Notes: generated by a model not told the origin, from the sequence alone. A stretch of 64,000 bases of DNA from Patescibacteria group bacterium (GCA_041666325.1 JBAYHC010000001.1:137708-201707), one strand, 5' to 3'. Positions 1-46,412 are shown, counted from the stretch's first letter. A program made the numbers and translations.

Positions 1-514
1 TCTCCTGTTCGAATCCAAGAGGGATCTGAATCGGATAAGCGTTGCGTGACAATCTGGCGCGGACGGAATCAAGAGATCGATAAAAGTCACCACCAGTTTG
101 GTTGATTTTGTTGATAAAACAAATACGAGGAACGTGATAGTTGTCAGCTTGTCGCCAAACAGTTTCTGACTGTGGCTCTACCCCCATTTTGCCATCGAAA
201 ATTACAACGGCACCATCAAGAACACGAAGAGAACGCTCGACTTCTACAGTGAAGTCAACGTGGCCAGGAGTATCAATAATGTTGATACGATGTTCCTTCC
301 AAAAACATGTTGTGGCTGCTGAGGTAATTGTAATACCGCGCTCACGCTCTTGCTCCATCCAGTCCATGGTGGCTTGGCCTTCATGAACTTCACCAATCTT
401 ATGGACGCGTCCGGTGGTATACAAAATACCCTCTGTCACAGTAGTTTTTCCAGCATCGATATGAGCAATTGTTCCGATGTTGCGAATTTTCTCTAACGGG
501 TAATCTCGAGCCAT
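1..514 (-). CDS. fusA: Elongation factor G, N-terminal ~171 aa only; the gene continues past the window start
   Basis: Reverse-strand translation from ATG (complement of 512-514): [25 protein letters not shown]...[20 protein letters not shown]...[25 protein letters not shown]. The EF-G G-domain motifs are present. An RBS (AGGAG) lies upstream. Confidence 0.9.
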
Positions 515-535
515 AAGTCTCCTAATATCTTACGA

Positions 536-553
536 ATCCGCCAGCTGGCGGAA
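536..553. promoter_or_regulatory. Perfect 16-bp palindrome TCCGCCAGCTGGCGGA in the fusA 5' leader; possible operator or RNA stem
   Basis: Read directly from the sequence. It sits about 20 nt upstream of the fusA start on the minus strand. Confidence 0.3.
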
Positions 554-798
554 CGAATTTAACGAAATTACGAAATTACAAATGATTAAAACTTTAGTAT
601 AGTATTTGTTTGTAATTTTGTACTTTCGTGAGATTCGTATTTTGGTAGGGGTTTTTATGAAATAAAAACAAAAATTCCCTCTTTCTGCTTTCGTATTGTA
701 ACACAGAGACTCATTCTATGTCAACGAAGAAATTTCCAAATTTGGCAAACTTCTAAAGCATCGGTTAATATATATTAGTAATTAATCGAAGGGATTCT

Positions 799-1038
799 AT
801 GGCAAAAACAGAGGAATTTAAGGTCTCTGGCGAGGAAATTGTCAAAAAGGTTAAGGAGATCGTCAAAGAAGGTAATGTCCGCCGAATTATTATCAAGAAC
901 GAAAAGGGCGAGACTGTGATTGAGCTCCCTCTGACAATCGGTGCCATCGGAGCGCTCATTGCCCCAGCCCTCGCAGCGGTTGGCGCACTGGCTGCCCTGC
1001 TAACAAATTGCACGATAGTTGTTGAAAGAAAAGAATAG
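799..1038 (+). CDS. Small DUF4342-like protein (79 aa)
   Basis: MAKTEEFKVSGEEIVKKVKEIVKEGNVRRIIIKNEKGETVIELPLTIGAIGALIAPALAAVGALAALLTNCTIVVERKE. The pattern is recalled from DUF4342 family members. An AT-rich promoter-like region lies upstream (TTGGCA...TAATAT near 742-772). Confidence 0.55.
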   Translation: MAKTEEFKVSGEEIVKKVKEIVKEGNVRRIIIKNEKGETVIELPLTIGAIGALIAPALAAVGALAALLTNCTIVVERKE

Positions 1039-1045
1039 GGACTAA

Positions 1046-1225
1046 CTACTTCTTTGCGGATTGCAGGAGAGAGAAGAGCAGAAGCCCGAGACCAAAAAGT
1101 ACGAGCAACCCGCCCAAGGGAAAGATAATCAGAGCAAAGATGAATCCGAATATGACTGAAATTAATCCCACCGCAACCGATGGGCGGTTTTTGATTAGAT
1201 CTTCAATTATCTTCTGCAATCCCAT
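1046..1225 (-). CDS. Small hydrophobic membrane protein (59 aa)
   Basis: MGLQKIIEDLIKNRPSVAVGLISVIFGFIFALIIFPLGGLLVLFGLGLLLFSLLQSAKK. GGAGGA lies 4 nt upstream of this internal ATG. The ORF-track version starts at 1276. Confidence 0.5.
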   Translation of the reverse strand: MGLQKIIEDLIKNRPSVAVGLISVIFGFIFALIIFPLGGLLVLFGLGLLLFSLLQSAKK

Positions 1226-1280
1226 GATCCTCCATCCTTTATATAGATCAATTTCATAATAACGTACCCAGAGCAAAAAG

Positions 1281-1312
1281 AAAAACCGGCGGGCCGCGGG
1301 GCCCGCCGGCTG
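1281..1312 (-). terminator. Rho-independent terminator after the WD40 gene
   Basis: Perfect GC inverted repeat CCGGCGGGCC-GCGG-GGCCCGCCGG, followed on the minus strand by a T-run (GGTTTTTCTTTTT). Confidence 0.7.
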
Positions 1313-1317
1313 TATTG

Positions 1318-2295
1318 TTAGGGTGCAATCGCCTGTGGCGCAACTTCGTACCCGAGCCCACTGGCCCTGGTGACGATCAAACTTCCGTGCGTAGGCAGTG
1401 GCACGATCGATATCACCCTCGTACCGGCCTGTGGCACGATCGACGCCAACTTTCGACCAGAGGCATCAATCTGGATGATCTGGCCATCTTCCCCCCCAGA
1501 GAAGACAGACTGACCGTCGAGGGCGAACTCGAGCGAGGTGACCGGTCCATCGTGATGACATCTCTGCCACCGGATCCATGCCTGACCCGCGTGCGAGCTG
1601 GGATACGGCCGGCCCAGGTCGGCGAGGCCGACCCAGCCCTGATCTGTGCCTGCGACGACCAGTCCGCCATCAAGCGAAATCGCCAGCGATCTGATCGAAG
1701 CGGCGTTATCTACGTCAAATATCCGGTGTGTGCCACTCCGGATATCCCAGACCTTGACGGTACCACTCTCGCCCGCCTGGGCCAGATAGCATCCGTCTGG
1801 CGAGATAGCCATTAGTGGCGCCCAATAGTCAGGCACCATCACTCTCTTGATGGTCTCCCTCTGGACATCCCAGACTGTGACGACGCTGTTCCGGCCAGCG
1901 CAAGCACTGGCCAGGATCCTGCCGTCCGCCGCCAGAGCAATTGCGGCAACTTCCGCCGTGTGCTGCAAGGTAGTATGCGGCTGATCGATACGATTGTCGA
2001 TCAAACCCATCTTGACTTGGCAGCCTTCAGCGATAGTCGCAACAACACGGCTAACCGGCGCGAGCTGATACCCCCTACAGCCAGACAACAGTTTGTGACC
2101 GATCGAAGTGACGTAGGGGTGAACCATTCCGCACCAGCTCTGCGGCAACCAGGTATACACCTGGTTATGCGTACCGACTGCCAGTCTGTAACCACTCTGG
2201 CAGTAGCCGAGCAAGGTTGCTGGCCCCAACGGAGGACTCTGCTTCAGAATAAGCCGGTCCCCATCCAATACTGCATTACCACACGTCTCAGACAT
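1318..2295 (-). CDS. WD40-like beta-propeller protein (about 325 aa) on a GC-rich island (about 60% GC) inserted between rpsG and fusA
   Basis: WD repeats are clear, e.g. AISPDGCYLAQAGESGTVKVWDIRSG and VVTVWDVQRE. RBS GGAAGGAG lies 7 nt upstream of the ATG at 2293-2295. The ORF-track start at 2367 is probably read-through into the leader. Confidence 0.7.
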   Translation of the reverse strand: MSETCGNAVLDGDRLILKQSPPLGPATLLGYCQSGYRLAVGTHNQVYTWLPQSWCGMVHPYVTSIGHKLLSGCRGYQLAPVSRVVATIAEGCQVKMGLIDNRIDQPHTTLQHTAEVAAIALAADGRILASACAGRNSVVTVWDVQRETIKRVMVPDYWAPLMAISPDGCYLAQAGESGTVKVWDIRSGTHRIFDVDNAASIRSLAISLDGGLVVAGTDQGWVGLADLGRPYPSSHAGQAWIRWQRCHHDGPVTSLEFALDGQSVFSGGEDGQIIQIDASGRKLASIVPQAGTRVISIVPLPTHGSLIVTRASGLGYEVAPQAIAP

Positions 2296-2465
2296 TGTGT
2301 TTCTCCTTCCCGACTCTACTCCACCTACCACCTTAACTCGAGGCTGGGAAAGAGAGGCCCCGACCATTCGGGACGCTCTTAGACAGGCTTTGTCACGAGG
2401 ATACTACCGGTATTGCCTCAAACTATGCCTGAATTTCCAGGATTTGTAAAGATACACTAGAGACT

Positions 2466-2498
2466 AACAAAAAAGGAGACTCAACAATCTCCTCTTTT
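2466..2498. terminator. Hairpin terminator downstream of rpsG (GGAGAcTCAACAATCTCC flanked by A/T runs)
   Basis: Read directly from the sequence. It separates rpsG from the inserted WD40 gene. Confidence 0.5.
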
Positions 2499-2516
2499 GT
2501 AATTTTGATTGATTAT

Positions 2517-2993
2517 TTAGAACCGGGCGAAATGTGCGAAGGCCTTGTTGGCCTCGGCCATTCTATGTGTATCTTCCCGTTTCTTTATTGCGGAACCCTC
2601 GCCATGGAAGGCATCAATAAATTCCTTTGCAAGTTTGGTCGCCATTGGTTCGCCCTTCTTGGATCGAGCGGCCGCGATAATCCAACGAACGGCTAGGGTG
2701 TTGCGACGATCTCTGCCGACCTCGACTGGGACCTGGTAGTTCGCTCCGCCAATTCTCTTGCTTTTGATCTCAAGGATTGGACCGACATTTTTGAGAACCT
2801 GTTGATAGACATCCATCTGTGGGACGTTGAGCTCTTTGCTGGCCTGATCGAGAGCACCGTAAACAATTCTCTCGGCGACTGTCTTTTTGCCATTCTCCAT
2901 AATGTGATTCATCAACTTGGAAACAAGAGTGCTACCGTACTGAATGTCAGGTACGATCTCATGTCTTTTAATTTTTATGTGTCCTCGTGGCAT
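2517..2993 (-). CDS. rpsG: 30S ribosomal protein S7
   Basis: MPRGHIKIKRHEIVPDIQYGSTLVSKLMNHIMENGKKTVAERIVYGAL... Canonical S7, 158 aa. Confidence 0.95.
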   Translation of the reverse strand: MPRGHIKIKRHEIVPDIQYGSTLVSKLMNHIMENGKKTVAERIVYGALDQASKELNVPQMDVYQQVLKNVGPILEIKSKRIGGANYQVPVEVGRDRRNTLAVRWIIAAARSKKGEPMATKLAKEFIDAFHGEGSAIKKREDTHRMAEANKAFAHFARF

Positions 2994-3044
2994 GGTGTAG
3001 TTTCTTAATTAATAAAGTTTCTAAAGTTATTTGAGTTCTAACGA

Positions 3045-3464
3045 TTATTCGGTTGATCTCTTGGCGCCATATTTGCTTCTGGCTTTTTTGCGACCCTTTA
3101 CACCGCTAAGATCGAGTTTGCCTCGAACAATGTGGTATCGCATACCAGGAAGGTCTTTGACACGGCCGCCGCGGACAAGAACAACTGAGTGTTCTTGAAG
3201 TTGGTGACCTTCACCGCCGATATAGGCATTTACTTCCATACCGTTAGTCAGACGGACGCGAGCAAACTTTCGCAAAGCAGAGTTTGGCTTCTTTGGTGTC
3301 ATTGTGCCGACCTTGACACAAACGCCACGCTTAAAAGGAGACCCTTTATCAAGCTCAACCGGCTTATTTTTCAGATAGTTGAAAGTTGTCTTGATGGCAG
3401 TGGTCTTTGTCTTTTTCTGGACCTTAACTCTACCTTTTTTTACTAATTGACTAATTGTTGGCAT
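3045..3464 (-). CDS. rpsL: 30S ribosomal protein S12
   Basis: [21 protein letters not shown]...[59 protein letters not shown]. Canonical S12. Confidence 0.95.
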
Positions 3465-3608
3465 GGTTTTTCTTCTTAAGCTTAACTTAACAGATTAAAG
3501 TTTATCACAATTTTATGCGTATGTCAAAGGAAATACGATAGTGTGAGAGCTGAAGAGTAGAGAGTAATGCGTTAATTACTCTTTCCCTTCAAACTCTCAC
3601 ACATCCTT

Positions 3609-6600
3609 TTATCTATCTTTTAATCCTGTTCCAGCAGGTATCAAGCGTCCGATAATGACGTTCTCTTTGAGACCGAGCAGCGGATCAGATTTGCCAGCGA
3701 TGGCTGCATCAATCAAGACACTTGTAGTTTCCTGGAATGAAGCGGCAGAGAGCCAGCTCTCAGTCTTGATGGCGACGCGGGTAATACCCATGACAACATC
3801 TTCGATTTCGATCTGCTTCTTGCCAGCTTCCTTCAATGCCTTGTTCTTCTCCCTGAGTTGAATTCTATCGGTTACCTGCCCAGCAAGAAACTCGGAATCA
3901 CCTGGATCAGTAATGCGAACCTTCGAAAGCATCATTCGAACAATAACCTCTACGTGCTTGTCATTAATATCTTGTCCTTGTGATTCGTAAATCATTTGGA
4001 CCTGTTTAATAACATAGTTCTCAGTAGATTGTCGTCCGGCCAGTTTGAGGCTAGCCGCTAAATCATAGTGACCCTCTGTAATCGCATCGCCGCGCTTAAT
4101 CTCGTCACCTGTTTTAACCTTAAGCTGGATAATTCTAGGCGCTGCGTATTCCTTGACGATGTTGCCGAATCCGGCAACCTTCGCCTGGCCACCCTTAATC
4201 TTGATCTCACCTGCAAACTGGGTACGGATAGGTGCCTGATCTGCGGCTTCCGCCACGATCTGCTTAGCCTTGACTTGTTCGCCAGTCTTAACTGACCATT
4301 TGTATCCGTCTGGCAAAACGACATCGGTCGATCGTTCTCCGCGACCAGAGACAGTGATAATCGAAGTCCCGCTCTCCTCCCGCACGGAAACCTTGCCTTC
4401 AATCTCAGAGAGAATAGCTGGAGACTTTGGAATGCGAGCTTCGAACAGCTCCTCAACTCGAGGCAAACCTGATGTGATATCAAGACCAGCTGCGCCGCCA
4501 GTATGGAATGTGCGCATAGTAAGCTGTGTGCCTGGTTCACCGATTGCCTGAGCAGCAACGATACCAACCGTAGAACCAGCCTCAACCACATTACCTGTCG
4601 CAAGATCGAGTCCGTAACATTTTTTACACACACCTTTTTGGGATTCACAGGTAAGAAGGGAGAATATTTCAACTGATGAAATACCTGCCTCGTTGAACTT
4701 GGCAACTTCCGCGTCAGTAATAATGGTTCCAACTGCGACGCCAGCAACGCTCTTGCCAAGAATTCTTCCATGAATATATTTGTCCCAATCCTCGCCCAGG
4801 CTCTGATAGAAGGCCCTTGAAATTGTTCTCGTCTTGTCGGTACCGCAATCATCAGATGTAATAACAGTATCCTGAGAAACGTCAACGAGCCTTCGTGTCA
4901 AATACCCAGCCTCGGAGGTACGAAGAGCGGTATCAGCGCGACCCTTACGTGAACCGTGGGTCGATACGAAATATTCGAACACGGACAATCCTTCTTTGAA
5001 GTTGGATTTGATTGGAATTTCGATAATTTCACCGGTAGTATCCGCAACCAAACCCTTCATGCCGGAAACCTGAACAATCTGAGCGACATTACCACGAGCA
5101 CCAGAGCTCATGATGACGAAAAGATCGTTTTCCTTGGTGTAGCCCTTTAACATATCTCGCTCAACCTGAGCCTGAGCATTCATCCAGATCTCTACAGTCT
5201 TGGCATGGCGTTCCTCGTCACTGATCAAGCCTTGCTCATATTGTTTGTTGACAGTATCAACCATCTTCTCAGATTCGCCAATGACTGCATCCTTGGTGGG
5301 CGGAACATGAATGTCATTAACAGCGAAGGTCAGGCCTGAACGCTGCGAGTATGCAAAGCCTAGATCCTTTAGGTCGTCTACGAACTGAGCCGTGCGCTCC
5401 GTGCCATACATGCGATATATCTTATCAACGAAACGAGTAATACTCTTCTTATTCATGAGTTCGTTTAGGAAGCGAAGCTCTTCTGGGATAATTTCATTGA
5501 AGAGAACTCGTCCAACGGTAGTCTTGACAATCTCTCCTGATTTAACCTTTACGGTAATCTTGGCGACCAAAGCAATGATGCCCTGGTTGTAGGCCGAGAC
5601 TGCTTCATTCTCAGAAGCAAAGACCATGCCCTCGCCCTTCATGCCATCTTCAATCGAAGTGATGTAATAACTTCCAAGCACAATATCTTGGGACGGCGTA
5701 ACAACAGGGTCTCCGGATGCAGGCTTGAGCAGGTTATGGGCGGAAAGCATAATGGTTCTAGCTTCTTCCTGAGCCTTGTCCGAAAGAGGAAGGTGAACTG
5801 CCATTTGGTCTCCATCAAAGTCAGCATTGAAAGCAGCACAAACCAATGGGTGAATCTGAATAGCCTTGCCCTCGATCAAAACAGGCTGAAACGCCTGGAT
5901 ACCAAGTCGGTGCAGTGTTGGGGCACGGTTTAGAAGCACGTACTTGTTTTTAGTAATTTCTTCAAGAATGTCCCAAACGAAGGGCTCACCCTTTTCGATC
6001 AAACGTGTCGCATTTTTAACATTATGAACATAGCCGTCTGAGATAAGCCGACCGATAATAAACGGTTTGAATAACTCAAGGGCCATGATTTTTGGCAAAC
6101 CGCACTGATGGAGCTTTAGTCGTGGACCAACAACAATTACAGAACGGCCAGAGTAATCGACGCGCTTACCGAGAAGATTCTGACGGAAACGGCCTTGCTT
6201 GCCGCGCAGCATGTCTGAAAGTGATCGGAGTTTTCTCTTGCCGCCAGCCGATGAAGCAACTTTACCCTTGCGGGCAGAATTGTCAATCAACGCATCAACT
6301 GCCTCCTGAAGCATTCTTTTCTCATTTCGAGATATAACTTCAGGTGCACCTTGAGAAATTAAGCGCTTGAGACGGTTGTTCCTGTTAATAACACGGCGAT
6401 AAAGATCATTTAGGTCTGAAGCAGCAAAACGACCACCATCTAGCTGAACCATCGGACGCAAATCCGGCGGAATAACAGGCAGGCGGGTCATAACGAGCCA
6501 TGCTGGATCTATCTCTGCGCCCTTCATATTCTTTAGGGTACGCAAACGTTTTAGGACTCTTGCCCGGTTCAAACCGGTTTGTCGCTTGGTGCTCTCCTCA

Positions 6601-7343
6601 GAGTCAACGATCTCTTTATCAAGATCAACATGCTTGAGAAGCTCCAAAATGGCGTCTGCGCCAATTCCTACACGAATAATCTGACCATACTTCAGGTTTA
6701 GCTCATGGTATTCTAATTCAGAAATTATTCGTCCAACGTACAGACTCGAAAGCTCGGTCTTAGCTCGGCGGTATGCCTGCTCAACCTCAGCCTTGAGGTC
6801 TTCGGGATTTTCATCACCACCAGCGTTATTCTTGAGGTCCTCGAGATACTCTTTGTATTCCTTCTCCAGACTCTCCAGGCTGCTCTTCTGCAACTCTTCA
6901 TTAACACTCAGAATTACAAAGCTTGCAAAATAAACAATCTTTTCAACGTCAGTGAATGACATGTTTAAGACTGTTGAGATAATACTGGAAGCACCTCTGA
7001 TATACCAGATATGAGCAACAGGAACGGCTAGATCGATGTGACCCAAGCGGACGCGGCGAACCTGAGAACGGGTTACCTCAACGCCACACTTATCACAGAC
7101 AACGCCCTTATATCTGATTTTTCGGTACTTACCACAATAGCATTCCCAATCTTTTGTCGGTCCGAAAATCTTCTCATCAAACAAACCATCGCGCTCAGGT
7201 TTCTGCGTTCGATAGTTGATGGTCTCGGGTTTTTGAACCTCGCCATGGGACCAAGAAAGGATTTGTTCCGGTGAAGCGACCGAGAGTTTGATCGCCTCGA
7301 AGTCCGCAACATTGATCTGGTCTGCGACCTCAAAGTTTGCCAT
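3609..7343 (-). CDS. rpoC: DNA-directed RNA polymerase beta' subunit
   Basis: 1244 aa. Zinc-binding motif [23 protein letters not shown] and the [12 protein letters not shown] catalytic motif are present. Confidence 0.97.
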
Positions 7344-11192: not shown

Positions 11193-11576
11193 TTATCCAA
11201 ACTTCGGGCCAATAGTGGCTACACTGAGAGCTCGATTGCTAATACCCATCGAACGAAGCAATGCAGCGATTGTTTGCGGCTCAACCCTCACCTTGAGTTT
11301 GCCGCAGCGTAGCGAAACGCCGCGACCTTGCTCCGCCTCAACAATGTCGACACTGTCCTCGTTCCATCGAGGGTGGCACAGAATCTCTCGTGCACGAACA
11401 AGGGCAGACTCACGGGTCGGCCTGATAGCCGCAATCCCTGATTCAATGTCGTCAACTCGGCTTTCGACTCTCACTTCCCATATCTCACCGTCCACACCTC
11501 GGTCAATGGCCCAGTCGAATGCAAGCTTGATCAGTGCGTTGAGAAGATCAAGATCCGGCAGCTTGTTGTCCATCAC
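11193..11576 (-). CDS. Hypothetical protein (127 aa) on a GC-rich island, translationally coupled to the upstream beta-propeller gene (ATGA overlap)
   Basis: MMDNKLPDLDLLNALIKLAFDWAIDRGVDGEIWEVRV... No domain recognised. Confidence 0.5.
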   Translation of the reverse strand: MMDNKLPDLDLLNALIKLAFDWAIDRGVDGEIWEVRVESRVDDIESGIAAIRPTRESALVRAREILCHPRWNEDSVDIVEAEQGRGVSLRCGKLKVRVEPQTIAALLRSMGISNRALSVATIGPKFG

Positions 11577-12613
11577 AGCCCCCGCATCGTAACATGCTGA
11601 AGGAGGTTGCGCACAGGATAGAGGAAAACCTCTTTGGTGCCAAGCGACGCCACCGCCACATATTCACCGTCCGGCGAGCAAGCCAAACAGTGGGGCGGTG
11701 CCCCGGGCAGTTCGAGATAATCGAGCTGCTTCCAGGTGGCAGCATCAATGAAGGCCATAATGCCAGCCTTGATCACGTTGCCTACATTACTGTCTTCGTC
11801 CCCATTCGGCTTATAGCCCAAGCCGGTAGCCAGAACAAGCTTGTGGTGCGGCAGGGAACCAATATCAATGATTGAAGTCATACAGAGCTTCGCGCCATCG
11901 ACTTTGCCATATTTTCCCGTCGCCAGATCAACCACGACAACCTTCGGCTTCCCCGCCGGATTGGTCCAGATGGTCGCCAACCAAACATCGTTAATAAAGC
12001 CGAAAATATCCAGACAGTATTCCACAGATCCAACAAGCGGGCCGAGACTAAATGACCCAATACTCGAGAGCGATGAAGGAAAACGATAGACACTGATATC
12101 TGACCTATGGATTGAAGCAAGCAAACCGCTACTGCCAGGAGAGAAATGAGCAGATGATCCGGACAAGCAACCAAAAGTCAATCTTTTGGGCTTTCTGTCT
12201 GATATATCCCAAACCCCAAAACCTGGCCCGTGCGTATTGCAGACAGATATCAGTTTCCCATCACTCGACAAAGATACAGAATTGCCATTGGCCGGTTCCC
12301 CCATCTCAACAGCAACCTCATATTTACCGTCCGTGTCCCAGATTGAAACATGTCTATGATCCGCGTACCCAAGCGCTATGCGCTGACAATTTCCCATCGC
12401 AGCAACAGCGATATTGTGTACATCGGATTGCAAGACCCAACCGGAAGGCAAGACACACTCGAGCGACACACCGTTGGCAAAGCTCCACCTCTCGACATAT
12501 CCGCTCAAGCCAGCCTTACCTACTACGTACAAATTCCGCCCAAACCAAGTCAGGTCGCGAATGTTGGCACACTCTCCGCGGAGTGTAATGTACGGCACAT
12601 GCGATTTGGGCAT
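11573..12613 (-). CDS. WD40-like beta-propeller protein (GC-rich island); the alternative upstream start at 12685 is less likely
   Basis: WD-like repeats: VWDISDRKPKRL, CSPDGEYVAVASLGTKEVFLYPV. RBS GAAGGGGGA lies before the ATG at 12611-12613. Confidence 0.6.
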   Translation of the reverse strand: MPKSHVPYITLRGECANIRDLTWFGRNLYVVGKAGLSGYVERWSFANGVSLECVLPSGWVLQSDVHNIAVAAMGNCQRIALGYADHRHVSIWDTDGKYEVAVEMGEPANGNSVSLSSDGKLISVCNTHGPGFGVWDISDRKPKRLTFGCLSGSSAHFSPGSSGLLASIHRSDISVYRFPSSLSSIGSFSLGPLVGSVEYCLDIFGFINDVWLATIWTNPAGKPKVVVVDLATGKYGKVDGAKLCMTSIIDIGSLPHHKLVLATGLGYKPNGDEDSNVGNVIKAGIMAFIDAATWKQLDYLELPGAPPHCLACSPDGEYVAVASLGTKEVFLYPVRNLLQHVTMRGL

Positions 12614-12709
12614 GTAGCGCGTTCCCCCTTCTTTGGACTCAAGCAAAGCGGTTCTCTGCTCGGGATGAGACGGGTGTGTCACCACACCCGAGGAGAGAAA
12701 AACGAAAGA

Positions 12710-13717
12710 TCAATTATTAATCGGCCGAAAAAGCTGGTCAATCCGACCAACGTGAAGCAAGTTGTCTCTAAGAAGGGCAATGTGGCAGCCATCAGGCGAT
12801 AGAGCGGCCTGTTCTGCCTGAAATGAACTAGCTCGGCCGATGATGGTAGCGCCATAGCAGAGCCTAAGATCATCGACACCGTCCCATTCATCCTTCCTTG
12901 TGCCCCAGACAACCCAATTATCTCCATCTCCCGCTGTCATGGCTCCGTAATTACGCTCAAAGCCAGTGCTAACTACTCCCACAACCTCAATCTTATTCGC
13001 ATCAATCAGGTAAATGGGCGGGGTTTCGTTCCACCCGGCCGTGACAATCAATTGGTCCTTGTGAAATACGAGGGAGTCGGGTGTTCCGCCCTCAATCGAC
13101 CAGGGCGTGAGTTGTCGCGAGATCTGCGTGCTCAAGCCAGTTTTCAGATCAAAAAGATCAATTGGGCAATCATCGAAAACATAGGCCAGCAAACCCGATG
13201 GCGAGACAGCGCTCGCTCGCAGTGAACCATCCCCTCTCGCAACCCGGTGAATGCATTGTCCACTAGCGACATGGTAAACCTCAAGACCTGTGCGACTGGT
13301 ATAAATAAGGTTACCATCATGATAATCAATGGTAACACTCAGCACGCTTCCGGCAACGAGATCACTGGAAGGACTCGGTAAATTGCACGACTCAACCGCA
13401 TCACCGTCATGATAAGCGCGCAGGACAACGCGACCATCAAGCTGATGGATGGCCAAAACGTGCTGGCCCTCATATTTGCCCAGATATGTCCACGAACTGA
13501 AATGCTCTCCGTGATCCACGAGCCAAATAAGACTAATCTCCGGCCAGTTGAAAAAGACGTTTGCAATGTAGCGCGGCTTATCACTATAGTCTTCGCTGCC
13601 AACAATCATAGTCTTTGGGGTCGTCCAGCCGAGCTGAGAAACCCGACCGCGCCCTGACGGACGTACACAAAGCGTTACAAACTTTGATCCCACAAAGGCT
13701 GTCGGATCATTCGGCAT
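12710..13717 (-). CDS. WD40-like beta-propeller protein (GC-rich island)
   Basis: Repeats such as ALSPDGCHIALLRDNLLHV and SAVSPSGLLAYVFDD. A strong RBS AGAGGAGGG lies before the ATG at 13715-13717. The ORF-track start at 13759 reads through the RBS. Confidence 0.6.
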   Translation of the reverse strand: MPNDPTAFVGSKFVTLCVRPSGRGRVSQLGWTTPKTMIVGSEDYSDKPRYIANVFFNWPEISLIWLVDHGEHFSSWTYLGKYEGQHVLAIHQLDGRVVLRAYHDGDAVESCNLPSPSSDLVAGSVLSVTIDYHDGNLIYTSRTGLEVYHVASGQCIHRVARGDGSLRASAVSPSGLLAYVFDDCPIDLFDLKTGLSTQISRQLTPWSIEGGTPDSLVFHKDQLIVTAGWNETPPIYLIDANKIEVVGVVSTGFERNYGAMTAGDGDNWVVWGTRKDEWDGVDDLRLCYGATIIGRASSFQAEQAALSPDGCHIALLRDNLLHVGRIDQLFRPINN

Positions 13718-13893
13718 GTCAATGCCCTCCTCTTTCCGTGCCAGCTTTTGCCAGCACACAAAACCAGCCCCCTCTTGAGCTGGTCGCTGATGAGAACTAT
13801 ATCACTTAATTAGAAAAACGCAAGAATAGCAGACAAAGGTTAATCTGACGTGAAGCGGGGTACATCGCGCACAAACCACTTACGCCTGACGCG

Positions 13894-14007: not shown

Positions 14008-14040
14008 ACGGGCCTCCTGCAAAAACTAGTATATCGTATT

Positions 14041-14084
14041 TCGCCCACCTGCATCACCTGGAGCGAAGCGACTGCGGGCAGGTA
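14041..14084. repeat. Copy A of a dispersed intergenic repeat family (core ...CCTGCATCRCCTGGAGCGAAGCGACTGCGGGCAGG...)
   Basis: A 44-nt near-identical core is shared with 15186-15240 and 31636-31692. Confidence 0.8.
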
Positions 14085-15124: not shown

Positions 15125-15185
15125 TTATCAGGCGAAATACTAAAGTTAAAATCTCACTCCCATGAGCTGTCTCTTGCAATTAGTC

Positions 15186-15240
15186 CTTACGCCCGCCTGC
15201 ATCGCCTGGAGCGAAGCGACTGCGGGCAGGCTTTAAGCCT
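15186..15240. repeat. Copy B of the dispersed repeat (CTTACGCCCGCCTGCATCGCCTGGAGCGAAGCGACTGCGGGCAGGCTTTAAGCCTTA)
   Basis: Identical to copy C over about 50 nt. It is flanked by short CCTTA(C/A)GCC direct repeats. Confidence 0.85.
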
Positions 15241-15258
15241 TACTACTGATGCCTACGC

Positions 15259-28151: not shown

Positions 28152-28490
28152 TTAGATTAAGCAAAAATGTATATGTGGTACGAATCGAAAACAACGCTAA
28201 TTGCAACTACCAGACAACACAAGTTCTTCTAACTTATCGTTCTGCCTCTACCCACCCAACGAGAACAATTCGCGCCTGTGGTTGTTATGTCTTGTGCATT
28301 GGTTTGTTTCTCGCAATAAAAAGAGAAAACGAATGTTTCTCGCAATAGCATTGTATCATGGCCAGATTGAAGCATCAAGTCTGAAAGTTGTGCGGCAGCC
28401 AAGAAACTAACGTAAATCCAACCATTGGACACGACAACGCGAGCGCTGGAAATACAAATCTCCGAAACATAATCTTAATGTCCAGCTCTC

Positions 28491-28518
28491 TTGACAACCG
28501 ACCAATCCAGCGTATAAT
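28491..28518 (+). promoter_or_regulatory. Consensus sigma70 promoter TTGACA-16-TATAAT
   Basis: Read directly: ttgacaaccgaccaatccagcgtataat. Confidence 0.65.
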
Positions 28519-28524
28519 TCAGTC

Positions 28525-28698
28525 AAACGATTAAGCGTATCGCCACTATCCGACTCGCGAACCCTACGGCACGACTATCGCGCCGCCTGTCCGCTAGTCA
28601 GCCAAGCTGCTCCGAAAGTTCGGGGCGCTGCCCTGCTCTTACCCAAGCAGGGTAAATGTCGTGCTGGCAGCGGAGTCCCAGAGGGAGGAAGTTTACAG
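28525..28698 (+). promoter_or_regulatory. GC-rich, highly structured ~175-nt 5' leader (nested stems CGCTGCC[CTGCT..AGCAG]..GGCAGCG and CCGAAagTTCGG); candidate cis-regulatory RNA
   Basis: The stems are read directly from the sequence. The class is unknown. Confidence 0.35.
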
Positions 28699-29280
28699 AT
28701 GTTCGATCACACGAGGTATGTGGAGTTTCACGGAGTGGGCGCCTCCGTGAGGTGCGATGGCAAGCCAGTAGGGCTACTATCCGACATTGCCCCCAACCTG
28801 CGCTGGTTTGAGGTAGGTGCAGGGGCAAAGCTGCTTGCCATCGGGCTGGACAATCTCCAACCGACAGTTCAGCCACTCGACAGACGGCTGAACATGCTGG
28901 CAGCCAAAGCGCAGCCGGGTGAGCTCTGCCCAGTGCCACGCTGGCGCCAGGTGGAAGTTTTCTCCAGCTCCCCGGTCCACGGGGCACGGGAGATCGAACC
29001 TGGCAAGTGGCTCATAGCCAAGCGGCGCCTGGCGCCGCAAAAACAGGATACTGTTACGATACCAGCCGACGGGGTCGGTCAGATTACGCTGGCGATCAGC
29101 AGCCTGCGCCCTGGAGGCGGCAACACCCTGCTCATGGGCGAGATTCGCTTCAACGTAGCCCGGGGAAAAGGACTGACACCTCTCCCGGACAATCAGGAGC
29201 TGCTTCTGTGCAATCCCAACTGGGCAGATTCACTGCCCGCCGACGCCGGCGTCTTCTTTGCCGGTGTACTCAAACGCTGA
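28699..29280 (+). CDS. Hypothetical protein (193 aa) on a GC-rich island (about 62% GC)
   Basis: Strong RBS GAGGGAGGAAG before the ATG. MFDHTRYVEFHGVGASVRCDGKPVGLLSDIAPNLRWFEV... No domain recognised. Confidence 0.55.
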   Translation: MFDHTRYVEFHGVGASVRCDGKPVGLLSDIAPNLRWFEVGAGAKLLAIGLDNLQPTVQPLDRRLNMLAAKAQPGELCPVPRWRQVEVFSSSPVHGAREIEPGKWLIAKRRLAPQKQDTVTIPADGVGQITLAISSLRPGGGNTLLMGEIRFNVARGKGLTPLPDNQELLLCNPNWADSLPADAGVFFAGVLKR

Positions 29281-29385
29281 CGCGGCACCACCGCTAAAGC
29301 ACCCCCGGCCAGGCGCATATCATCACGCCAACTTTGCCTGGCCCCGTTCCTAAAAGCACAAAAATTGCGCTCTTGGGTGACGGAT

Positions 29386-29433
29386 TAAAAAATAGACCAA
29401 AGGATACTAGCATGGTCCGGTGGTCTATTTTTT
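29386..29433. terminator. Bidirectional terminator (AAAAAATAGACCA...TGGTCTATTTTTT)
   Basis: A perfect 13-bp inverted repeat lies between the convergent genes 28699-29280 (+) and 29425-31608 (-). Confidence 0.7.
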
Positions 29434-31608
29434 AATCTTCTCGAACTCAACAGAGAACTCTTTGTCCTGAAGCAGGGTGTGCCGAATCAAAATCCTGTGA
29501 TTAATCGCATCATAGTTCTTCACATTTATCGGCTTGTAGTTCGCAGGATACTTTATTGCTATTTCATAATCATCACCAATGCTTCCCGGCTGTTTTTGTA
29601 AGTAGAGCTTATAGGTCATTGTTTGGGCGCTTGTCTCAACACGGTAATTCGGCGCGTACTCAAAGGATGACTTAGACGACTTTCCTGGTTCAGTGTTCTG
29701 CCAGAAGCTAATCTTTGTTTTGCCAGCCTCTTCGCCCGTTTCATACAGTCTGGATGATGAATACTTTTTGTCATTATGCGGCCAAAAACTGCCCGATATA
29801 TTGGAAAAAGAATCGATTGTTGAGTTTTGCGGCAACAAAACACGGATCAAATTTACATTTGCACCATCGGGCCAGTTGCCATCACCATTGTGCTTACGGT
29901 TTATCTCCACTCTCGATTTTATTTCTCCCGAACCCGCGATATCAACCTGATATTTGACCAGCTCTTTAACATTTAGACTGCTCTTAGCTCCACCGATATT
30001 TGTATTATGAACAAATAAGTAATCAGCTAGCATGTGCTCGACCTTTCCGGCATAATCTAACTTCTCTAACATTTCCTGAAGGCTGGAATTCTTGAAATTT
30101 AGCAACATGTGCTTTTCCTTCAATCCGCGTCCGAGCGCCTCCAGCATTAGGTTTGACTTCTCAGCGCTACCAAAGCCATCAAAAAGACGGTTAATAAATA
30201 TTGGCATCATAACTGCCAATATTTTCTTTGGCTCATTCTCAACATCACTACCGTCCCGCTCAAAGTAACCTCGCTCAACCTCATACTGCACATCTTTCAG
30301 AAAATTATCGTAACCGATGGTCTTGCCAAATTCAGGCATATCTATCGGCCCAACAATTCTCAGGAGGTCAATAAAAAGAGTCGTATCCAGGGCCATGACC
30401 CCATCGACTTTTTTACCCGATTCTAGTTCATAAAACTCCATGACCCTGGAGAAGCTTTCTGGACCATCGATCGCAAGATTGCTATCTCTCATGGCCCATG
30501 ACTCAGCCATTGTCTCGAGCTCATTGGGGATGGCAACCTTAGTGTGGGCAGAAAAAGCTTTGTCTAGCTTGTAAATATTTGTCTCGAATTCTATATCAGC
30601 GAGCTTGCCATCAGAAAAACTTGCAACCGCAAACGAACCGATAAAACCGCCGCTACCACGTATCTCAGTATTGTTTTGAAAGAGGATAAGGATTCTTCTC
30701 GTGCCGCCATCACCGGATAACCACGGCAAGCCATCTTTGACAAAAACCCCCGTCTGGTCGAGCGTTGAATCAAGCTTATCAATAATATCAATGGCCTTCT
30801 TGCTCTCTTGCGCCAGAGCATTAGGCATAGAACTAGAGGTCTTTTCTAATTCTTTCTTGCTACTCTCAAGTCGATCTTTTGCCCGGGCAAGCGCAATCTC
30901 CAGGTCAGTCTGAATTAGCACTAGGTCAGCTGTTGGAATTCCGCTATCAGAAGTAGAGGCAACCGAATTGGCAAATGATACCTTTAGAGAATGCTCAAAG
31001 TCAGATAGAGCGCTTAGGATGGCATAAATACTATTTAAAAAACGCTCATACGCGACCAGTCTGGAGCTATGGCCGGGAACAAGACTCAAGTACTTGATGT
31101 CCTGCCCCCACGACTGAACAAGCAATTTTAATTGACCGATATCATCTTTGGCTTGGTCTGCCTCTTCTAGTCCTCGTGAAACATCGCCGCTCTCGATTGA
31201 GTCAAAAGCCGATACCAGATGCTCTTGTGCGCTCGCAGTCAGTGTTTCGACCTGACTCTTTGCGCCGAATGCCTTATACGAAGTAAACAGGACAAGGCAA
31301 AGTATCAGAATCGAAGCAACTCCAGTTTGGTACTGTCGAACACTCGAAAGCTTTAAATTAATTTTGTGACGGGCAGACCTTGCCTTTAGGCCAATAAAGC
31401 CCTTCTGCTTGATTGTAAATACGGCTGCTTTGTTAGAAATAAAGTTTGGGTGTTCTTGCTTTGACAAGCTCTTGATTTCCTTATCAGAAGGGACAACAAA
31501 AAAATCCCTGTTCTCTGGTTCGAGCTCAGATTCATAGAAAACGCCAATTCGATCTATTCTTGTCGAGTCGTCGCTACTCTCTTCTTTTTTGAGATCGTCT
31601 TCCCCCAA
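29425..31608 (-). CDS. DUF4012-like large membrane-anchored protein (727 aa)
   Basis: N-terminal TM. The central block ILILFQNNTEIRGSGGFIGSFAV is typical of DUF4012 (from memory). Confidence 0.55.
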   Translation of the reverse strand: MGEDDLKKEESSDDSTRIDRIGVFYESELEPENRDFFVVPSDKEIKSLSKQEHPNFISNKAAVFTIKQKGFIGLKARSARHKINLKLSSVRQYQTGVASILILCLVLFTSYKAFGAKSQVETLTASAQEHLVSAFDSIESGDVSRGLEEADQAKDDIGQLKLLVQSWGQDIKYLSLVPGHSSRLVAYERFLNSIYAILSALSDFEHSLKVSFANSVASTSDSGIPTADLVLIQTDLEIALARAKDRLESSKKELEKTSSSMPNALAQESKKAIDIIDKLDSTLDQTGVFVKDGLPWLSGDGGTRRILILFQNNTEIRGSGGFIGSFAVASFSDGKLADIEFETNIYKLDKAFSAHTKVAIPNELETMAESWAMRDSNLAIDGPESFSRVMEFYELESGKKVDGVMALDTTLFIDLLRIVGPIDMPEFGKTIGYDNFLKDVQYEVERGYFERDGSDVENEPKKILAVMMPIFINRLFDGFGSAEKSNLMLEALGRGLKEKHMLLNFKNSSLQEMLEKLDYAGKVEHMLADYLFVHNTNIGGAKSSLNVKELVKYQVDIAGSGEIKSRVEINRKHNGDGNWPDGANVNLIRVLLPQNSTIDSFSNISGSFWPHNDKKYSSSRLYETGEEAGKTKISFWQNTEPGKSSKSSFEYAPNYRVETSAQTMTYKLYLQKQPGSIGDDYEIAIKYPANYKPINVKNYDAINHRILIRHTLLQDKEFSVEFEKIKK

Positions 31609-31635
31609 TCCACCTCCAGATACTAGAAATACCGC

Positions 31636-31692
31636 CTTACGCCCGCCTGCATCGCCTGGAGCGAAGCGACTGCGGGCAGGCCTTACGCCTTA
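31636..31692. repeat. Copy C of the dispersed repeat (CTTACGCCCGCCTGCATCGCCTGGAGCGAAGCGACTGCGGGCAGGCCTTACGCCTTA)
   Basis: Identical to copy B except for 2 nt. The core is flanked by CCTTACGCC direct repeats. Confidence 0.85.
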
Positions 31693-31721
31693 TAAAGATT
31701 TTACCATAAAACTGTCAGATA

Positions 31722-31760
31722 TAAAAAAGGGCCCCGACCGGAGGTCGAGGCGGGGATGAG
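31722..31760 (-). terminator. Terminator after the GC-rich ORF 31773-32138
   Basis: CGACC-TCCG-GGTCG stem, then GGGCCCTTTTTTATAT on the minus strand. Confidence 0.55.
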
Positions 31761-31772
31761 GAGTGCTGAGTC

Positions 31773-32138
31773 CTAGTCGTTGTCCCGATCCCGGGGAGGG
31801 ATGGGGAAGTACGCGAGATGATTACCGAGCTCCGTTCTGAGATATCTCCCGACAGCGTCACTATAGAGATCACTCAGGGCAAAATCGATCGGCCCGGTCG
31901 GTACGGCAGAGACTGGGTCTTCTCTGCCGGTTGCTGTGCGCCAGAAGTCGAGGATCTCGCCTGGCGCTGCGTCGACGGGAAGACCCCAGTCTTCAACGTC
32001 GAAGCCATATTCGCCGACTGACATGCCAGTCGGCGACCTTTGGGCGGCTTGCACAAGAGTAGCCCGGAGGCACTCAAGATCCACTTGGCCACCTCCTTTC
32101 ACTGGAGAAGTGGATGCACTGCCTATGTATGTAATCAC
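31773..32138 (-). CDS. Hypothetical protein on a GC-rich island (about 60% GC); start uncertain
   Basis: MITYIGSASTSPVKGGGQVDLECLRATLV...GEYGFDVEDWGLPVD... No domain recognised and no clear SD. Confidence 0.4.
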   Translation of the reverse strand: MITYIGSASTSPVKGGGQVDLECLRATLVQAAQRSPTGMSVGEYGFDVEDWGLPVDAAPGEILDFWRTATGREDPVSAVPTGPIDFALSDLYSDAVGRYLRTELGNHLAYFPIPPRDRDND

Positions 32139-32267
32139 AATGGCCTATTATTGTCAATGGTAAAAATATTGAGACATTGGATTATTGCAGACCAAAAACC
32201 GGCTTTGATATTATCTCCACCGGCTCATATCCATATCGTAGTAGACCATGTCGCAAAGTTAGTTTGC

Positions 32268-41261: not shown

Positions 41262-41444
41262 ACCACTTTCCCCCTCTCTGTGGTCGCGTGTCCTGATTCA
41301 CAATCATTATTTAATCACACTTTTCCCCACTTGTCCACTAGCAAGTCCACAACCGCTCGCATGGGTATTCTGTCACTTTTCTTCCTTGATCTCCCCAAAC
41401 AGAGTTCGGAAAGACACAGAGACTTAGACGTGCTCCTCCCTTCT

Positions 41445-41475
41445 ACTCTCTACTTTCTACTCTCTACTTTCTGGG
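41445..41475. repeat. Tandem heptamer repeat (TACT[C/T]TC) x4
   Basis: tactctc tactttc tactctc tactttc, read directly. Confidence 0.7.
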
Positions 41476-41477
41476 CA

Positions 41478-41506
41478 AAGAAAAAACGGGCTGGCTAGGC
41501 CCGTCT
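41478..41506 (-). terminator. Terminator for the 70%-GC gene (ACGGGC...GCCCGT plus T-run on the minus strand)
   Basis: Read directly. Confidence 0.6.
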
Positions 41507-41521
41507 CGGTATGTGCCGGTC

Positions 41522-41545
41522 TTCAACCGGTTTTTTGTTTGCCGT
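41522..41545 (+). terminator. Orphan plus-strand terminator-like hairpin (CCGGT-cttca-ACCGG-TTTTTTG) with no obvious upstream plus-strand gene
   Basis: Read directly. Confidence 0.35.
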
Positions 41546-41631
41546 AAATATGGCACCTTCCTCCTTGGAATGTCCCCCGAGGGGGAGCGGCCGCGTAGTT
41601 CGTGCGTCCGCTCCCCACTCAGGGCTGTGTG

Positions 41632-43188
41632 TCAGGCCGCGGCGCCGGCGGGCTCGCCGCGCTGCTTGCGATTGCGGCCGTTGGCGCTCGGCTTGGCGAT
41701 GCCCTCGAGGAGCTCCTTGTCCGCGGGGGACAGGATGTCCCCGATTGTGGCGAGCTTGTCGTCCCCGGCTACCAACCGCACCGTCGGGCCGTCGTCGCCC
41801 TGCTGCACCTCGTCGATGGGCTCGGTGTCGCTGGGCCCGGCCTCTTCGGTGAGGCGGGCTTCTTCGGCGACACGCCGCCTGGCGGCACCGCGGCCGCCGA
41901 TCGGCTTCTCGCGCTCGGCCTCGGTCTTGCGGTCCTTGCCTTTGCCGCTGCCCTTGTCAGGTGCGGACTGAGGCTCGGACGCTGGTGCCGTGGCCGGTGC
42001 TGCGGTCTTCTCTCCCCGGATCTGGGCCAGCAGGCGCTCGCGCCGGGCATCGGCCTCCTGCTTCTGGGCACGGAGGGCCTCGGCAGCAGCTTTGTCGGCC
42101 TCCTCTTTGGCCTGGAGACGCGCTCCGATGGTGCGGCCGGCGGCTTCGCCCTCGCGGTCGAGGGCAGCGAAGGTCTGCCAGGCCGGCTCAAGCGCCGGAA
42201 CGACCTCGGTGAAGGCGCCGTCACTGAAGGCGTCGCGCCCGTTGCGCAGAGCGCCGACGATCGCACCCCACTCGCTGGAGTGGCGGCCGTCGAACGCCCC
42301 GGTCTCCTTGCGGCTGTCCAGCTCCCACTGCGTCTCCCAGATAGCGAGCTGGGCCCGGGCGAAGCTGACGACGTCCTCTTCGGGCACGTCATGGCACATG
42401 GCCACAACGCTGAGGGCCATCATAGTCGCCTCGCGGAGCTTGTCGGGGTCTTCGGCCTTGCGCGCCTCATCGAACAGATCCTGGGTTGCCTGCACGAGAT
42501 CACCCAGATCCTCCTCGCGGCCAAGCTCACGGACAGCATGGCGCGCGATGCCGAGGGCCTTGCGCGGCGCCCTCTCGGCCGGCGGCGGCGGGGTGTTGTC
42601 CCGCTCCTGCCGCTGCTCGCGCACTGGCTGACGCTGCTCGGCCACGATCCGGCCAGTCGGCTCCTCCACCATAATGGTCGGAGCCGTAACGTCCCCCGCC
42701 TTGCGGTAGGGGACGACGCGCGCGGCCTTGCGGGCGCTGCGCACCTCGTCCAGAACCTCGCGAGCCTGGCGCAGAGCCTCGTATCCGGCCCTGTCGTCAC
42801 CATTGCGGTCTGCCCTGCGGGCGGCGCCGATGGCGCTGGCGATCAGGCCGAAATTCCGGTTCCGCTTCTCTTCCCAGCCGGGGAAGGCCCCGGCGGCCTT
42901 GCCCTCGTCGAAGTCTGCCTGGGTGGCCTCGATGGCCACGCCAAGCGCGGAGCGGCGGACGTCGGGTACGTCGGGGCCGCGATACGATCGCGGCTCGTAG
43001 TCCCGACCCTGCGGTTCCTCTTCGCCCTCGATGGCGACGAGGAACTGAGTCAGGGCCCCCATCACTTTCGATACGCGGCCGCTCCGCGTGCGGACCGGCT
43101 CAGCCGAACGATAGTCATCACGCCGGGGCTCCTGCCCCTGGCGTCCTCGCGGTGCAAACGGATCGAACCTGTTGTCGTTACCCATTGA
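41632..43188 (-). CDS. Hypothetical protein (about 518 aa) on a roughly 70% GC island; Glu/Asp/Arg/Ala-rich, no recognised domain
   Basis: Composition on the minus strand (E, D, K, R, A balanced) is protein-like. The fully overlapping plus-strand ORF is L/G/A/R-rich, as expected for an antisense artefact. GGAGG lies 9 nt upstream of the ATG at 43186-43188. The ORF-track start at 43521 extends into AT-rich leader. Confidence 0.55.
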   Translation of the reverse strand, partial: SMGNDNRFDPFAPRGRQGQEPRRDDYRSAEPVRTRSGRVSKVMGALTQFLVAIEGEEEPQGRDYEPRSYRGPDVPDVRRSALGVAIEATQADFDEGKAAGAFPGWEEKRNRNFGLIASAIGAARRADRNGDDRAGYEALRQAREVLDEVRSARKAARVVPYRKAGDVTAPTIMVEEPTGRIVAEQRQPVREQRQERDNTPPPPAERAPRKALGIARHAVRELGREEDLGDLVQATQDLFDEARKAEDPDKLREATMMALSVVAMCHDVPEEDVVSFARAQLAIWETQWELDSRKETGAFDGRHSSEWGAIVGALRNGRDAFSDGAFTEVVPALEPAWQTFAALDREGEAAGRTIGARLQAKEEADKAAAEALRAQKQEADARRERLLAQIRGEKTAAPATAPASEPQSAPDKGSGKGKDRKTEAEREKPIGGRGAARRRVAEEARLTEEAGPSDTEPIDEVQQGDDGPTVRLVAGDDKLATIGDILSPADKELLEGIAKPSANGRNRKQRGEPAGAAA

Positions 43189-43583
43189 ACACAAACCTCC
43201 ACTCCCCTGCCCGACCAAACGGGCATTGCCGGGGAGCTGACCGAAAGTGCCAGCCGTCACCATTGAAGCGGCTAGACTGGCGGGTGTAATGAAAACTTTG
43301 AAAGTGAACTCTTCGGCAAGCCGGCGAAAATCATGCCGGTCGCGAACAAAGTCACTCACTAAAGTTGCTGCTATATTAGCATATTTCCACGTCTCTGTCA
43401 AGACCCATGGCCGTGAATCGAGACGAATCCAGTTAATATCGCCTGTATCGCTAAATATTATGCTGGATATGCACGATCGACGATATCTAGCATAAGACCA
43501 ATTGATAGTACGCAAAAACATGCAAGCATTAAAATGCTTACCGCTGATCAGGTAGTATTATCGCAAAAAAAAGAAATGGGTTA

Positions 43584-45632: not shown

Positions 45633-45877
45633 GGGCTGAAACTTTATTGGGAAAAGCAGTAATGAAGTGAGGCGATAATGCGGTAAGCTGCAAGGACGGT
45701 TACCATCCCCACGACATTACAGCCATACTGCCCTACTGCTTTATTGCCAAATTTTGCCTTTTCATTTTGAATATCTATTATATGTGGATAACTCCGTTGC
45801 GTCAACGGTTAGCGCCATGATATATCTTGACTAAGTCTGGTACCGACCTTGAATGCCTACGTGTACGAGCCCGCCCG

Positions 45878-45905
45878 GAGGAGGGGGCTCGTTTTTGTAC
45901 TTGAG
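45878..45905 (+). terminator. Hairpin GAGCCC-N11-GGGCTC plus GTTTTT; terminator or attenuator-like
   Basis: Read directly. Confidence 0.4.
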
Positions 45906-45947
45906 AACCTTGACGTGCATCTCGCCACTCATCCATTGACACATAAG

Positions 45948-45980
45948 CCACGGCCATGTTATAAAAGTAGTTATATCTCA
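45948..45980 (+). promoter_or_regulatory. Sigma70-like promoter TTGACA-18-TATAAA at the head of a GC-rich island
   Basis: Read directly. Confidence 0.45.
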
Positions 45981-46126
45981 CTACGCGGGGCCTGCCACAT
46001 GGCCCCCAAGGAGGACACAACCTTGCGGAAATTCGGACAGATCAAGCCGAGTTCGAACGCGGCGCAACGGTGCCACTGGGCCCGCCCCTACTTCAAGCCT
46101 CTACGTGAACATGTGGGGGCAACCCA

Positions 46127-46340
46127 CATGGAATGTGGTGTGATGAGCCACACCGAAGAGTCGGTCAAGACAGTCGCCGCCGAGCGCGGCAGCTTCCGGT
46201 TGAAGGAGAACACCTCCATCGACTGGGAGAGAGTCATGGCCCACGCAGCCGCCAGTCACGCAAGACACAGGGTGGCCAGTGTCCGTATCGCAGAAACACT
46301 GGAAGAGCCGCTCGCCCGAGTGGCATCCGCCGGCACATAG
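46127..46340 (+). CDS. Possible small protein (70 aa) on a GC-rich island, followed by a terminator at 46385-46412
   Basis: MECGVMSHTEESVKTVAAERGSFRLKENTSIDWERVMAHAAASHARHRVASVRIAETLEEPLARVASAGT. The overlapping opposite-strand ORF looks like an antisense artefact. Confidence 0.3.
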
Positions 46341-46384
46341 CCGGCACCGCAAGTTGCTGATTGCCACCTCCCCGGTGGCACCCA

Positions 46385-46412
46385 GAGCCGACGCCCGTCG
46401 GCTCGTTTTTAT
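46385..46412 (+). terminator. Rho-independent terminator GAGCCGACG-CC-CGTCGGCTC plus TTTTTATT
   Basis: Read directly. Confidence 0.6.

Follow-up and report, generated by a model that had tools for sequence, protein, structure and literature searches.

A compositionally foreign WD40 gene as accessory cargo between rpsG and fusA in a Patescibacteria clade with an apparently ancestral split of the str operon

Does a GC-rich WD40 gene lying between rpsG and fusA mark a recent break in an operon that is among the most conserved in bacteria? We asked this for a stretch of 64,000 nt (hereafter the window) from a Patescibacteria group bacterium (GCA_041666325.1, JBAYHC010000001.1:137708-201707), for which the original prediction had described rpsL and rpsG followed by a terminator and a WD40 beta-propeller gene, with fusA about 2 kb further on, and had read this as a recent horizontal acquisition that broke the operon. 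In the classical str operon, as in E. coli and Salmonella, the order is rpsL-rpsG-fusA-tufA (PMC6735719). The window belongs to a 120,483-bp contig of JGI metagenome 3300037810, in which tuf, rpsJ, rplC and the remaining S10 cluster lie beyond fusA, and its gene cluster, wholly on the minus strand (rpoB, rpoC, rpsL, rpsG, ... fusA), keeps the order rpoB-rpoC-rpsL-rpsG...fusA-tuf-rpsJ-rplC. It differs from the classical arrangement in that rpsG here has a predicted intrinsic terminator and fusA a predicted conserved promoter and leader of its own. Instead of the short spacer of a contiguous str operon there is a gap of 2,002 nt between the end of rpsG and the start of fusA at position 514, holding three genes: the WD40 gene, an ORF (open reading frame) for a 59-aa membrane protein and a DUF4342 gene. 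As detailed below, the WD40 gene is an unremarkable accessory gene, carried as cargo in an intergenic slot of variable content, and we regard it as probable that its cassette was gained horizontally into an ancestral slot between terminator and promoter, with no transcription unit being interrupted.

The evidence on the age of the split came from relatives, which were collected by two routes: the S7 proteins closest to that of the window in an index of 5.8 billion proteins (63–76% identity) were followed to their contigs, and metagenome contigs were scanned for a pattern of fusA promoter and leader that had been drawn up from the relatives found in that way. The scan gave 10 hits, nine of which were directly 5' of fusA genes 78–95% identical to that of the window. 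A hairpin with a T-run was present 3' of rpsG in the window and in L082–L088, and in the window its fold was such that none of 200 shuffled sequences was equally stable. Ahead of fusA, the promoter CGTTGACA-N15-TGTTAnnAT together with a GGGnWnTTTT leader was found in the window, L082, L083, L084 and L087, and the fusA promoter with the leader motif (A)GAGGGGATATTTTTGTTTT, which matches no Rfam family, also at L090–L096, L098 and L099. Taken together, nearly all relatives retained a terminator behind rpsG, and every fusA inspected had this promoter and leader. Across the clade the gap between rpsG and fusA ranged from 0.25 to 2.5 kb, and in two relatives the slot was empty, with gaps of 307 nt (L082) and 255 nt (L092), both signals being present without any cargo. 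Because the signals at the end of rpsG and ahead of fusA are thus kept in relatives, even where nothing lies between them, the split would predate the WD40 gene, and no working operon would therefore have been broken by it. The str operon of this Patescibacteria clade appears, as judged from these conserved signals, to be ancestrally split into an rpsL-rpsG unit and a fusA(-tuf) unit, so that the claimed disruption of a highly conserved operon is not upheld. Likewise, the terminator that follows rpsG and the promoter of fusA, the latter matching 11 of 12 consensus positions, both conserved, argue against co-transcription of fusA from the rpsL promoter.

How unusual such a gap is could be seen from a scan of genome contigs with S7, in which the matches listed were at most 59% identical and hence form a cross-bacterial baseline rather than a set of close relatives. 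Among these listed matches, the gap was 120 nt or less in 61 of the 72 loci where fusA was located, and only five of the 72 had a gap of gene size, three of them in Patescibacteria (two Saccharibacteria and one Taylorbacteria).

In composition the WD40 gene stands apart from its surroundings. Its GC content (0.590 over 1318–2295) compares with a mean of 0.472 for the window and a median of 0.458 for its genes, which places it third among 47 ORFs with a robust z of 4.8 and agrees with the approximately 60% and 46% first given for gene and backbone. The GC content at third codon positions (GC3) was 0.66 vs 0.42–0.53 in rpoC, rpsL and rpsG (about 0.47), the synonymous-codon log-likelihood was -1.229 vs a mean of -1.138 (sd 0.06), and the dinucleotide delta* was 140 vs 69 ± 23, with only 0.6% of equal-sized segments of the window being as extreme. 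By these measures the WD40 gene is compositionally foreign, in line with the original prediction, which had correctly placed a WD40 gene in the gap but had taken it for the sole occupant, missing the 59-aa membrane ORF and the DUF4342 gene. Since the latter two are backbone-like in GC (0.45 and 0.48, respectively), the foreign-looking part is confined to about 1284–2400.

An abrupt change in composition inside a metagenome-assembled contig, in a window that holds further GC-rich patches, might also be explained by the GC-rich segment being a chimeric join or a contaminant introduced in assembly. We find this extremely unlikely, as backbone sequence is found on both flanks inside the 120-kb contig, the expression signals of the cassette are intact, and a Logan contig that was produced independently (L101, SRR6484324) matches window positions 330–3467 at 100% identity over 3,138 bp, including both junctions. 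The identical protein is furthermore encoded beside S7 on contigs 460 and 687 kb in length, and it also occurs in two NCBI metagenome-assembled genome records with consecutive accessions.

The WD40 reading frame is open from 1318 to 2367 (349 aa) and includes the peptide AISPDGCYLAQAGESGTVKVWDIRSG that had been quoted for it. Its most likely start is the ATG at 2295, corresponding to M25 of the 349-aa ORF and giving a protein of 325 aa. This start is favoured because GGAAGGAG is found 7 nt upstream, because GC3 rises there (from about 0.56 to 0.70 just past the ATG, with GC3 periodicity from near 2290) and because the 325-aa calls of NCBI (MFA5926855.1 and MFA6531385.1, both 'Patescibacteria group bacterium') are identical to it. 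A JGI call of 230 aa (P0001, start 2010) was rejected, as about two predicted blades would be lost with it. The Pfam WD40 family (PF00400) matched as a repeat, in three stretches, scoring 60.5 bits (cutoff 27; E 1.5e-16). An AlphaFold2 model was built from the 349-aa ORF with 30 distant homologues (predicted local distance difference test, pLDDT, 74.5; predicted TM-score, pTM, 0.75) and had 27 beta-strands across residues 32–334, corresponding to about seven predicted four-stranded blades, with residues 1–35 disordered in agreement with a start at M25. The two N-terminal blades were degenerate, having no Pfam match and pLDDT values of 47–79. The best matches by Foldseek in the PDB were the seven-bladed WD40 domains of 5yzv, Groucho/TLE and WDR5, with probability 1.0 and a target-normalised TM-score (TMt) of up to 0.75. 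The gene is hence predicted to encode a stand-alone propeller of about seven blades, the N-terminal ones with only moderate confidence, and by our own reading, which is not the result of a tool, the propeller would have neither a signal peptide nor a membrane segment at its N-terminus.

With known stand-alone bacterial WD40 propellers (PF00400; Thermomonospora curvata WD40 domain, PDB 5yzv) the protein shares the WD40 signatures, a predicted closed fold of about seven blades and a size of about 300 aa, but it differs from known WD40 proteins in having no close relative and two degenerate N-terminal blades. Most prokaryotic WD40 arrays are, in contrast, C-terminal modules of large STAND NTPase, kinase or HTH proteins, and the WD40 hits on plasmids likewise lie under NB-ARC, kinase and HTH genes, whereas the gene of the window encodes a propeller alone, to which no effector or sensor domain is attached. 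Among the PADLOC defence models there was a single match, covering 73 of the 1,972 positions of the HEAT-ARM_XIII profile and without partner genes; a role in a defence system was rejected because this match is merely at the level of WD repeats. Nor did we accept paralogy with a weakly propeller-like ORF at 11573–12685, the similarity to which reached only E 0.004 over 77 aa.

With its own ribosome-binding site (RBS) and a strong GC-palindrome terminator, as predicted, the region of about 1.1 kb (~1284–2400) is a self-contained cassette of a weak promoter-like site, a good RBS, the 325-aa ORF and the GC-rich terminator, possibly transcribed separately from the weak promoter at 2422–2450. Its product may be a cytoplasmic stand-alone propeller with no catalytic or sensor domain, which could act as a scaffold for protein–protein docking.

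The same position is occupied differently from relative to relative. Ten of the 12 distinct loci, including the window, carried cargo between rpsG and fusA (Table 1), and the WD40 gene was found at none of the 11 related loci, nor elsewhere in the sampled relatives with 63–76% S7 identity; the same gene with backbone-like GC, which would have spoken for a native origin, was consequently not seen at those loci. An IS30-family transposase at L090 lies immediately 5' of the conserved fusA promoter. Mobile elements do therefore land in this slot. The slot would be the spacer that extends from the rpsG terminator to the fusA promoter, where inserted DNA would interrupt neither transcription unit, and would therefore tolerate gene gain and turnover. 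As far as the sequences of the relatives tell, the spacer tolerates both the gain and the loss of genes in this lineage, and the position of the WD40 gene among translation genes would be incidental to this permissiveness.

For the origin of the WD40 gene, a word-indexed protein search was used together with an exhaustive HMMER search of 1.84 billion representative proteins. Apart from the gene itself, the hits were generic multi-WD40 arrays with 26–44% identity, mostly 1,000–3,600 aa long and covering only residues ~96–300 of the query, the named ones being from Poribacteria, Pirellulales, Anaerolineales and fungi. Phage genomes gave zero hits and the plasmid hits were generic (28–33% identity, Streptomyces and Nostoc), for which reasons an origin from a phage or a plasmid was rejected. 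That the gene came from the high-GC actinobacterial host of a Saccharibacteria-like epibiont, by a recent transfer that broke a functional rpsL-rpsG-fusA operon, is very unlikely in our view. The high GC of the gene would agree with such a donor, as would the best structural match, a WD40 domain from Thermomonospora curvata (TMt 0.75, 23% identity), and the dominance of Streptomyces among the weak plasmid hits. The latter, however, reflects for which of the WD40-rich taxa plasmid sequences exist, identities above 44% were reached by the gene itself alone, and the top sequence hits that carry a name are from the non-actinobacterial groups listed above. A GC content of 59% is also lower than typical actinobacterial values. 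The host itself groups by S7 with 'Patescibacteria group' and Berkelbacteria sequences at 63–76% identity, while Saccharibacteria loci reached 48–53% among the matches listed; by this protein the host is not placed in Saccharibacteria, and neither the actinobacterial donor nor the lifestyle as an epibiont of Actinobacteria that had been proposed finds backing. The operon split, finally, appears ancestral, as described above.

Horizontal acquisition of the WD40 gene is most probably the correct reading of these sequences, the source being a donor of higher GC. A number of points weigh against it. No donor or close homologue was found among some 15 billion proteins, and horizontal transfer is therefore argued from composition and from absence in distant relatives only. 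As the nearest other genomes are just 72–76% identical in S7, the gain cannot be dated by presence and absence, and the epithet 'recent' in the original prediction is not supported. A foreign origin is plausible. The functions of promoters and terminators are predictions, from which the boundaries of transcription were deduced. Within 500–3100 there was no integrase, transposase, tRNA target or convincing flanking repeat, and no tRNA family was found in an Rfam scan of the window. Finally, L084, with a fusA 84.5% identical to that of the window, has a WD40-like ORF that occupies this slot in the same orientation, is GC-enriched and followed 3' by a GC-rich hairpin terminator.

The slot resembles genomic islets and integration hotspots in that cargo that is variable and often of atypical composition is found at a fixed position between conserved core genes, and in that one relative (L090) has an IS30 transposase there. 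It differs from them in that the window has no integrase, tRNA gene, attachment-site repeat or other hallmark of a mobile element, and in that a terminator and a promoter, rather than a tRNA or tmRNA gene, define the slot. Two pairs of repeats do flank the cassette, one exact of 12 nt (609–620 and 2496–2507) and one of 19 nt with 74% identity (731–749 and 2432–2450); these were rejected as scars of insertion because chance alone should yield several matches of this kind in 2.7 kb, according to a rough estimate from seed frequencies, and because the empty site of L082 has no counterpart of them.

The ORF at L084 (284 aa; GC 0.557 vs 0.488 for its locus) raises the question of whether the WD40 gene could be an old, vertically inherited and fast-evolving resident of the slot, with a high GC typical of such accessory genes. 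The cargo of L083, L088 and L091, likewise 6–17 points richer in GC than the respective locus, would fit with this, and the L084 ORF can be aligned with the window protein at 26% identity over 175 aa (E 0.002). But the latter similarity is below that to generic WD40 proteins of unrelated phyla (30–44% in single stretches, with full-length E values down to 1e-80), the two proteins being no more alike than any pair of WD40 proteins, and the L084 ORF stays below the Pfam WD40 cutoff (17.4 bits vs 27). Orthology was for these reasons not accepted. Two relatives moreover have empty slots and the remainder carry unrelated cargo. We thus judge a vertically inherited resident to be unlikely, and prefer horizontal gain into a pre-existing slot.

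It is also possible, although on balance doubtful, that the spacer is a preferred landing pad throughout the lineage, repeatedly capturing single and often GC-rich orphan genes, with the WD40 islet being one of at least five in 64 kb that would hint at an unsampled high-GC source. If that were true, the WD40 cassette and the other islets, one of which has 68% GC and no detectable homologue, would point to a host, a virus or a mobile element as a source feeding these reduced genomes. The context is more useful than the gene, as it presents a textbook str operon that seems to be stably split in one Patescibacteria clade, with a slot that could serve as a simple marker locus for the flux of accessory genes in ultra-small uncultured bacteria. 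It also gives a warning that not every interruption of a 'universal' operon is a recent disruptive event. The GC-rich orphan islets in a reduced genome of 47% GC form a small puzzle that may merit more attention than the WD40 gene.

Table 1. Annotated features between rpoC and fusA in the window, and cargo found between rpsG and fusA at related loci
Locus	Feature	Position	Strand	Evidence
Window	rpoC	3609–7343	-	
Window	rpsL (ribosomal protein S12), 139 aa	3045–3464	-	Pfam Ribosom_S12_S23, E 6.3e-36
Window	rpsG (ribosomal protein S7), 158 aa	2517–2993	-	Pfam Ribosomal_S7, E 3.9e-56
Window	Predicted intrinsic terminator 3' of rpsG (A-tract/hairpin/U-tract)	~2462–2500	-	-19.1 kcal/mol, z -4.7
Window	Weak promoter-like site 5' of WD40 gene, TTTACA-17-CATAGT, 9/12	2422–2450	-	Consensus scan alone; putative function
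Window	Shine-Dalgarno sequence of WD40 gene	2303–2310	-	Read from sequence
Window	WD40 repeat gene, 325 aa	1318–2295	-	Pfam WD40; AlphaFold2 model; Foldseek; identical to MFA5926855.1
Window	Predicted GC-rich intrinsic terminator of WD40 gene, 12-bp stem with 10 G-C pairs, then U-tract	1275–1311	-	-26.8 kcal/mol, z -5.2
Window	Hydrophobic (membrane, TM) ORF, 59 aa, RBS GGAGG	1046–1225	-	ORF reading
Window	DUF4342 gene, 79 aa	799–1038	+ (opposite strand)	Pfam DUF4342, E 2.9e-28
Window	Predicted fusA promoter, TTGACA-18-TACAAT	695–724	-	11/12 consensus positions; belongs to the clade-conserved promoter pattern
Window	Leader motif AGAGGGAATTTTTGTTTTT, immediately 3' of -10 hexamer	664–682	-	Conserved in relatives
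Window	Rest of structured fusA 5' leader, long AT-rich hairpin and CCGCCAGCTGGCGG hairpin	515–663	-	Fold of 505–690, z -4.06
Window	fusA (EF-G), 5' part, extends beyond window	1–514	-	Full 693-aa gene in L081 with EF-G Pfam domains
L083/L093	Lipoprotein-like ORF, 225 aa		Opposite strand	
L084	Weak WD40-like ORF, 284 aa			
L085	PBP, M50 and U32 genes			
L087	Two paralogous secreted proteins			
L088	ORF, 151 aa			
L089	NMO-like gene, 484 aa, and giant ORF			
L090	IS30 transposase	396–1418		NCBIfam E 1.5e-58
L091/L094	GC-rich lipoprotein-like ORF, 177 aa			
L095	Three ORFs			

With regard to the other features of the gap, the 59-aa membrane ORF had no match in Pfam or NCBIfam. The leader of fusA, found as had been predicted, is 180 nt long and structured, and it belongs to no Rfam family, a scan of 400–2600 having given nothing above chance. 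Within it, at 553–638 on the minus strand, AT-rich hairpin arms of 30 nt (87% complementary) are adjacent to a CCGCCAGCTGGCGG palindrome, and with these elements the leader exceeds that of L082 by about 70 nt. They could be a regulatory structure or stem from the insertion of a small element.

Besides the WD40 islet, the window has at least four further GC-rich patches. The most pronounced, at 41425–43348 just downstream of uvrB, has a GC content of 0.68 overall and up to 0.74 in windows of 300 nt. An ORF of 629 aa at this place (41632–43521, minus strand) shows clear coding periodicity, with GC of about 0.77, 0.50 and 0.84 at the three codon positions, had no Pfam match and found only itself among 5.8 billion protein clusters. 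Three other patches (28473–29426, 31595–32155 and 45866–46507; GC 0.56–0.59) lie between backbone genes, and their longest ORFs (193, 121 and 163 aa, respectively) had no Pfam match. A shared origin of the GC-rich patches was rejected, as there was no DNA similarity among them and a single weak tblastx match of 34 residues between two (E 5e-5).

A GC-rich palindromic repeat, CGCCCGCCTGCATCGCCTGGAGCGAAGCGACTGCGGGCAGGC, of about 45–60 nt was observed in three intergenic copies (14013–14082, 15185–15242 and 31635–31692), with three exact 26-mers vs none expected by chance, and looks like a repetitive extragenic palindromic (REP) element or a miniature inverted-repeat transposable element (MITE). 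In L082, a similar 'GAGCGAAGCGAAG' hairpin is found directly 3' of the rpsG stop codon.

Directly upstream of rpoB, which is the usual position of rplJ-rplL, three ORFs of 127, 370 and 349 aa were found at 11193–13759 on the minus strand, with a mildly raised GC content of 0.51–0.54 and with obg further upstream. None of the three had a Pfam match above the family cutoff, and for the 370-aa ORF there were weak hits to beta-propellers (THOC3 beta-propeller, E 2.5e-6). In the Rfam scan of the window, one family alone exceeded its gathering score, namely the bacterial class A RNase P RNA, located at 60304–60786 on the minus strand with 145 bits.

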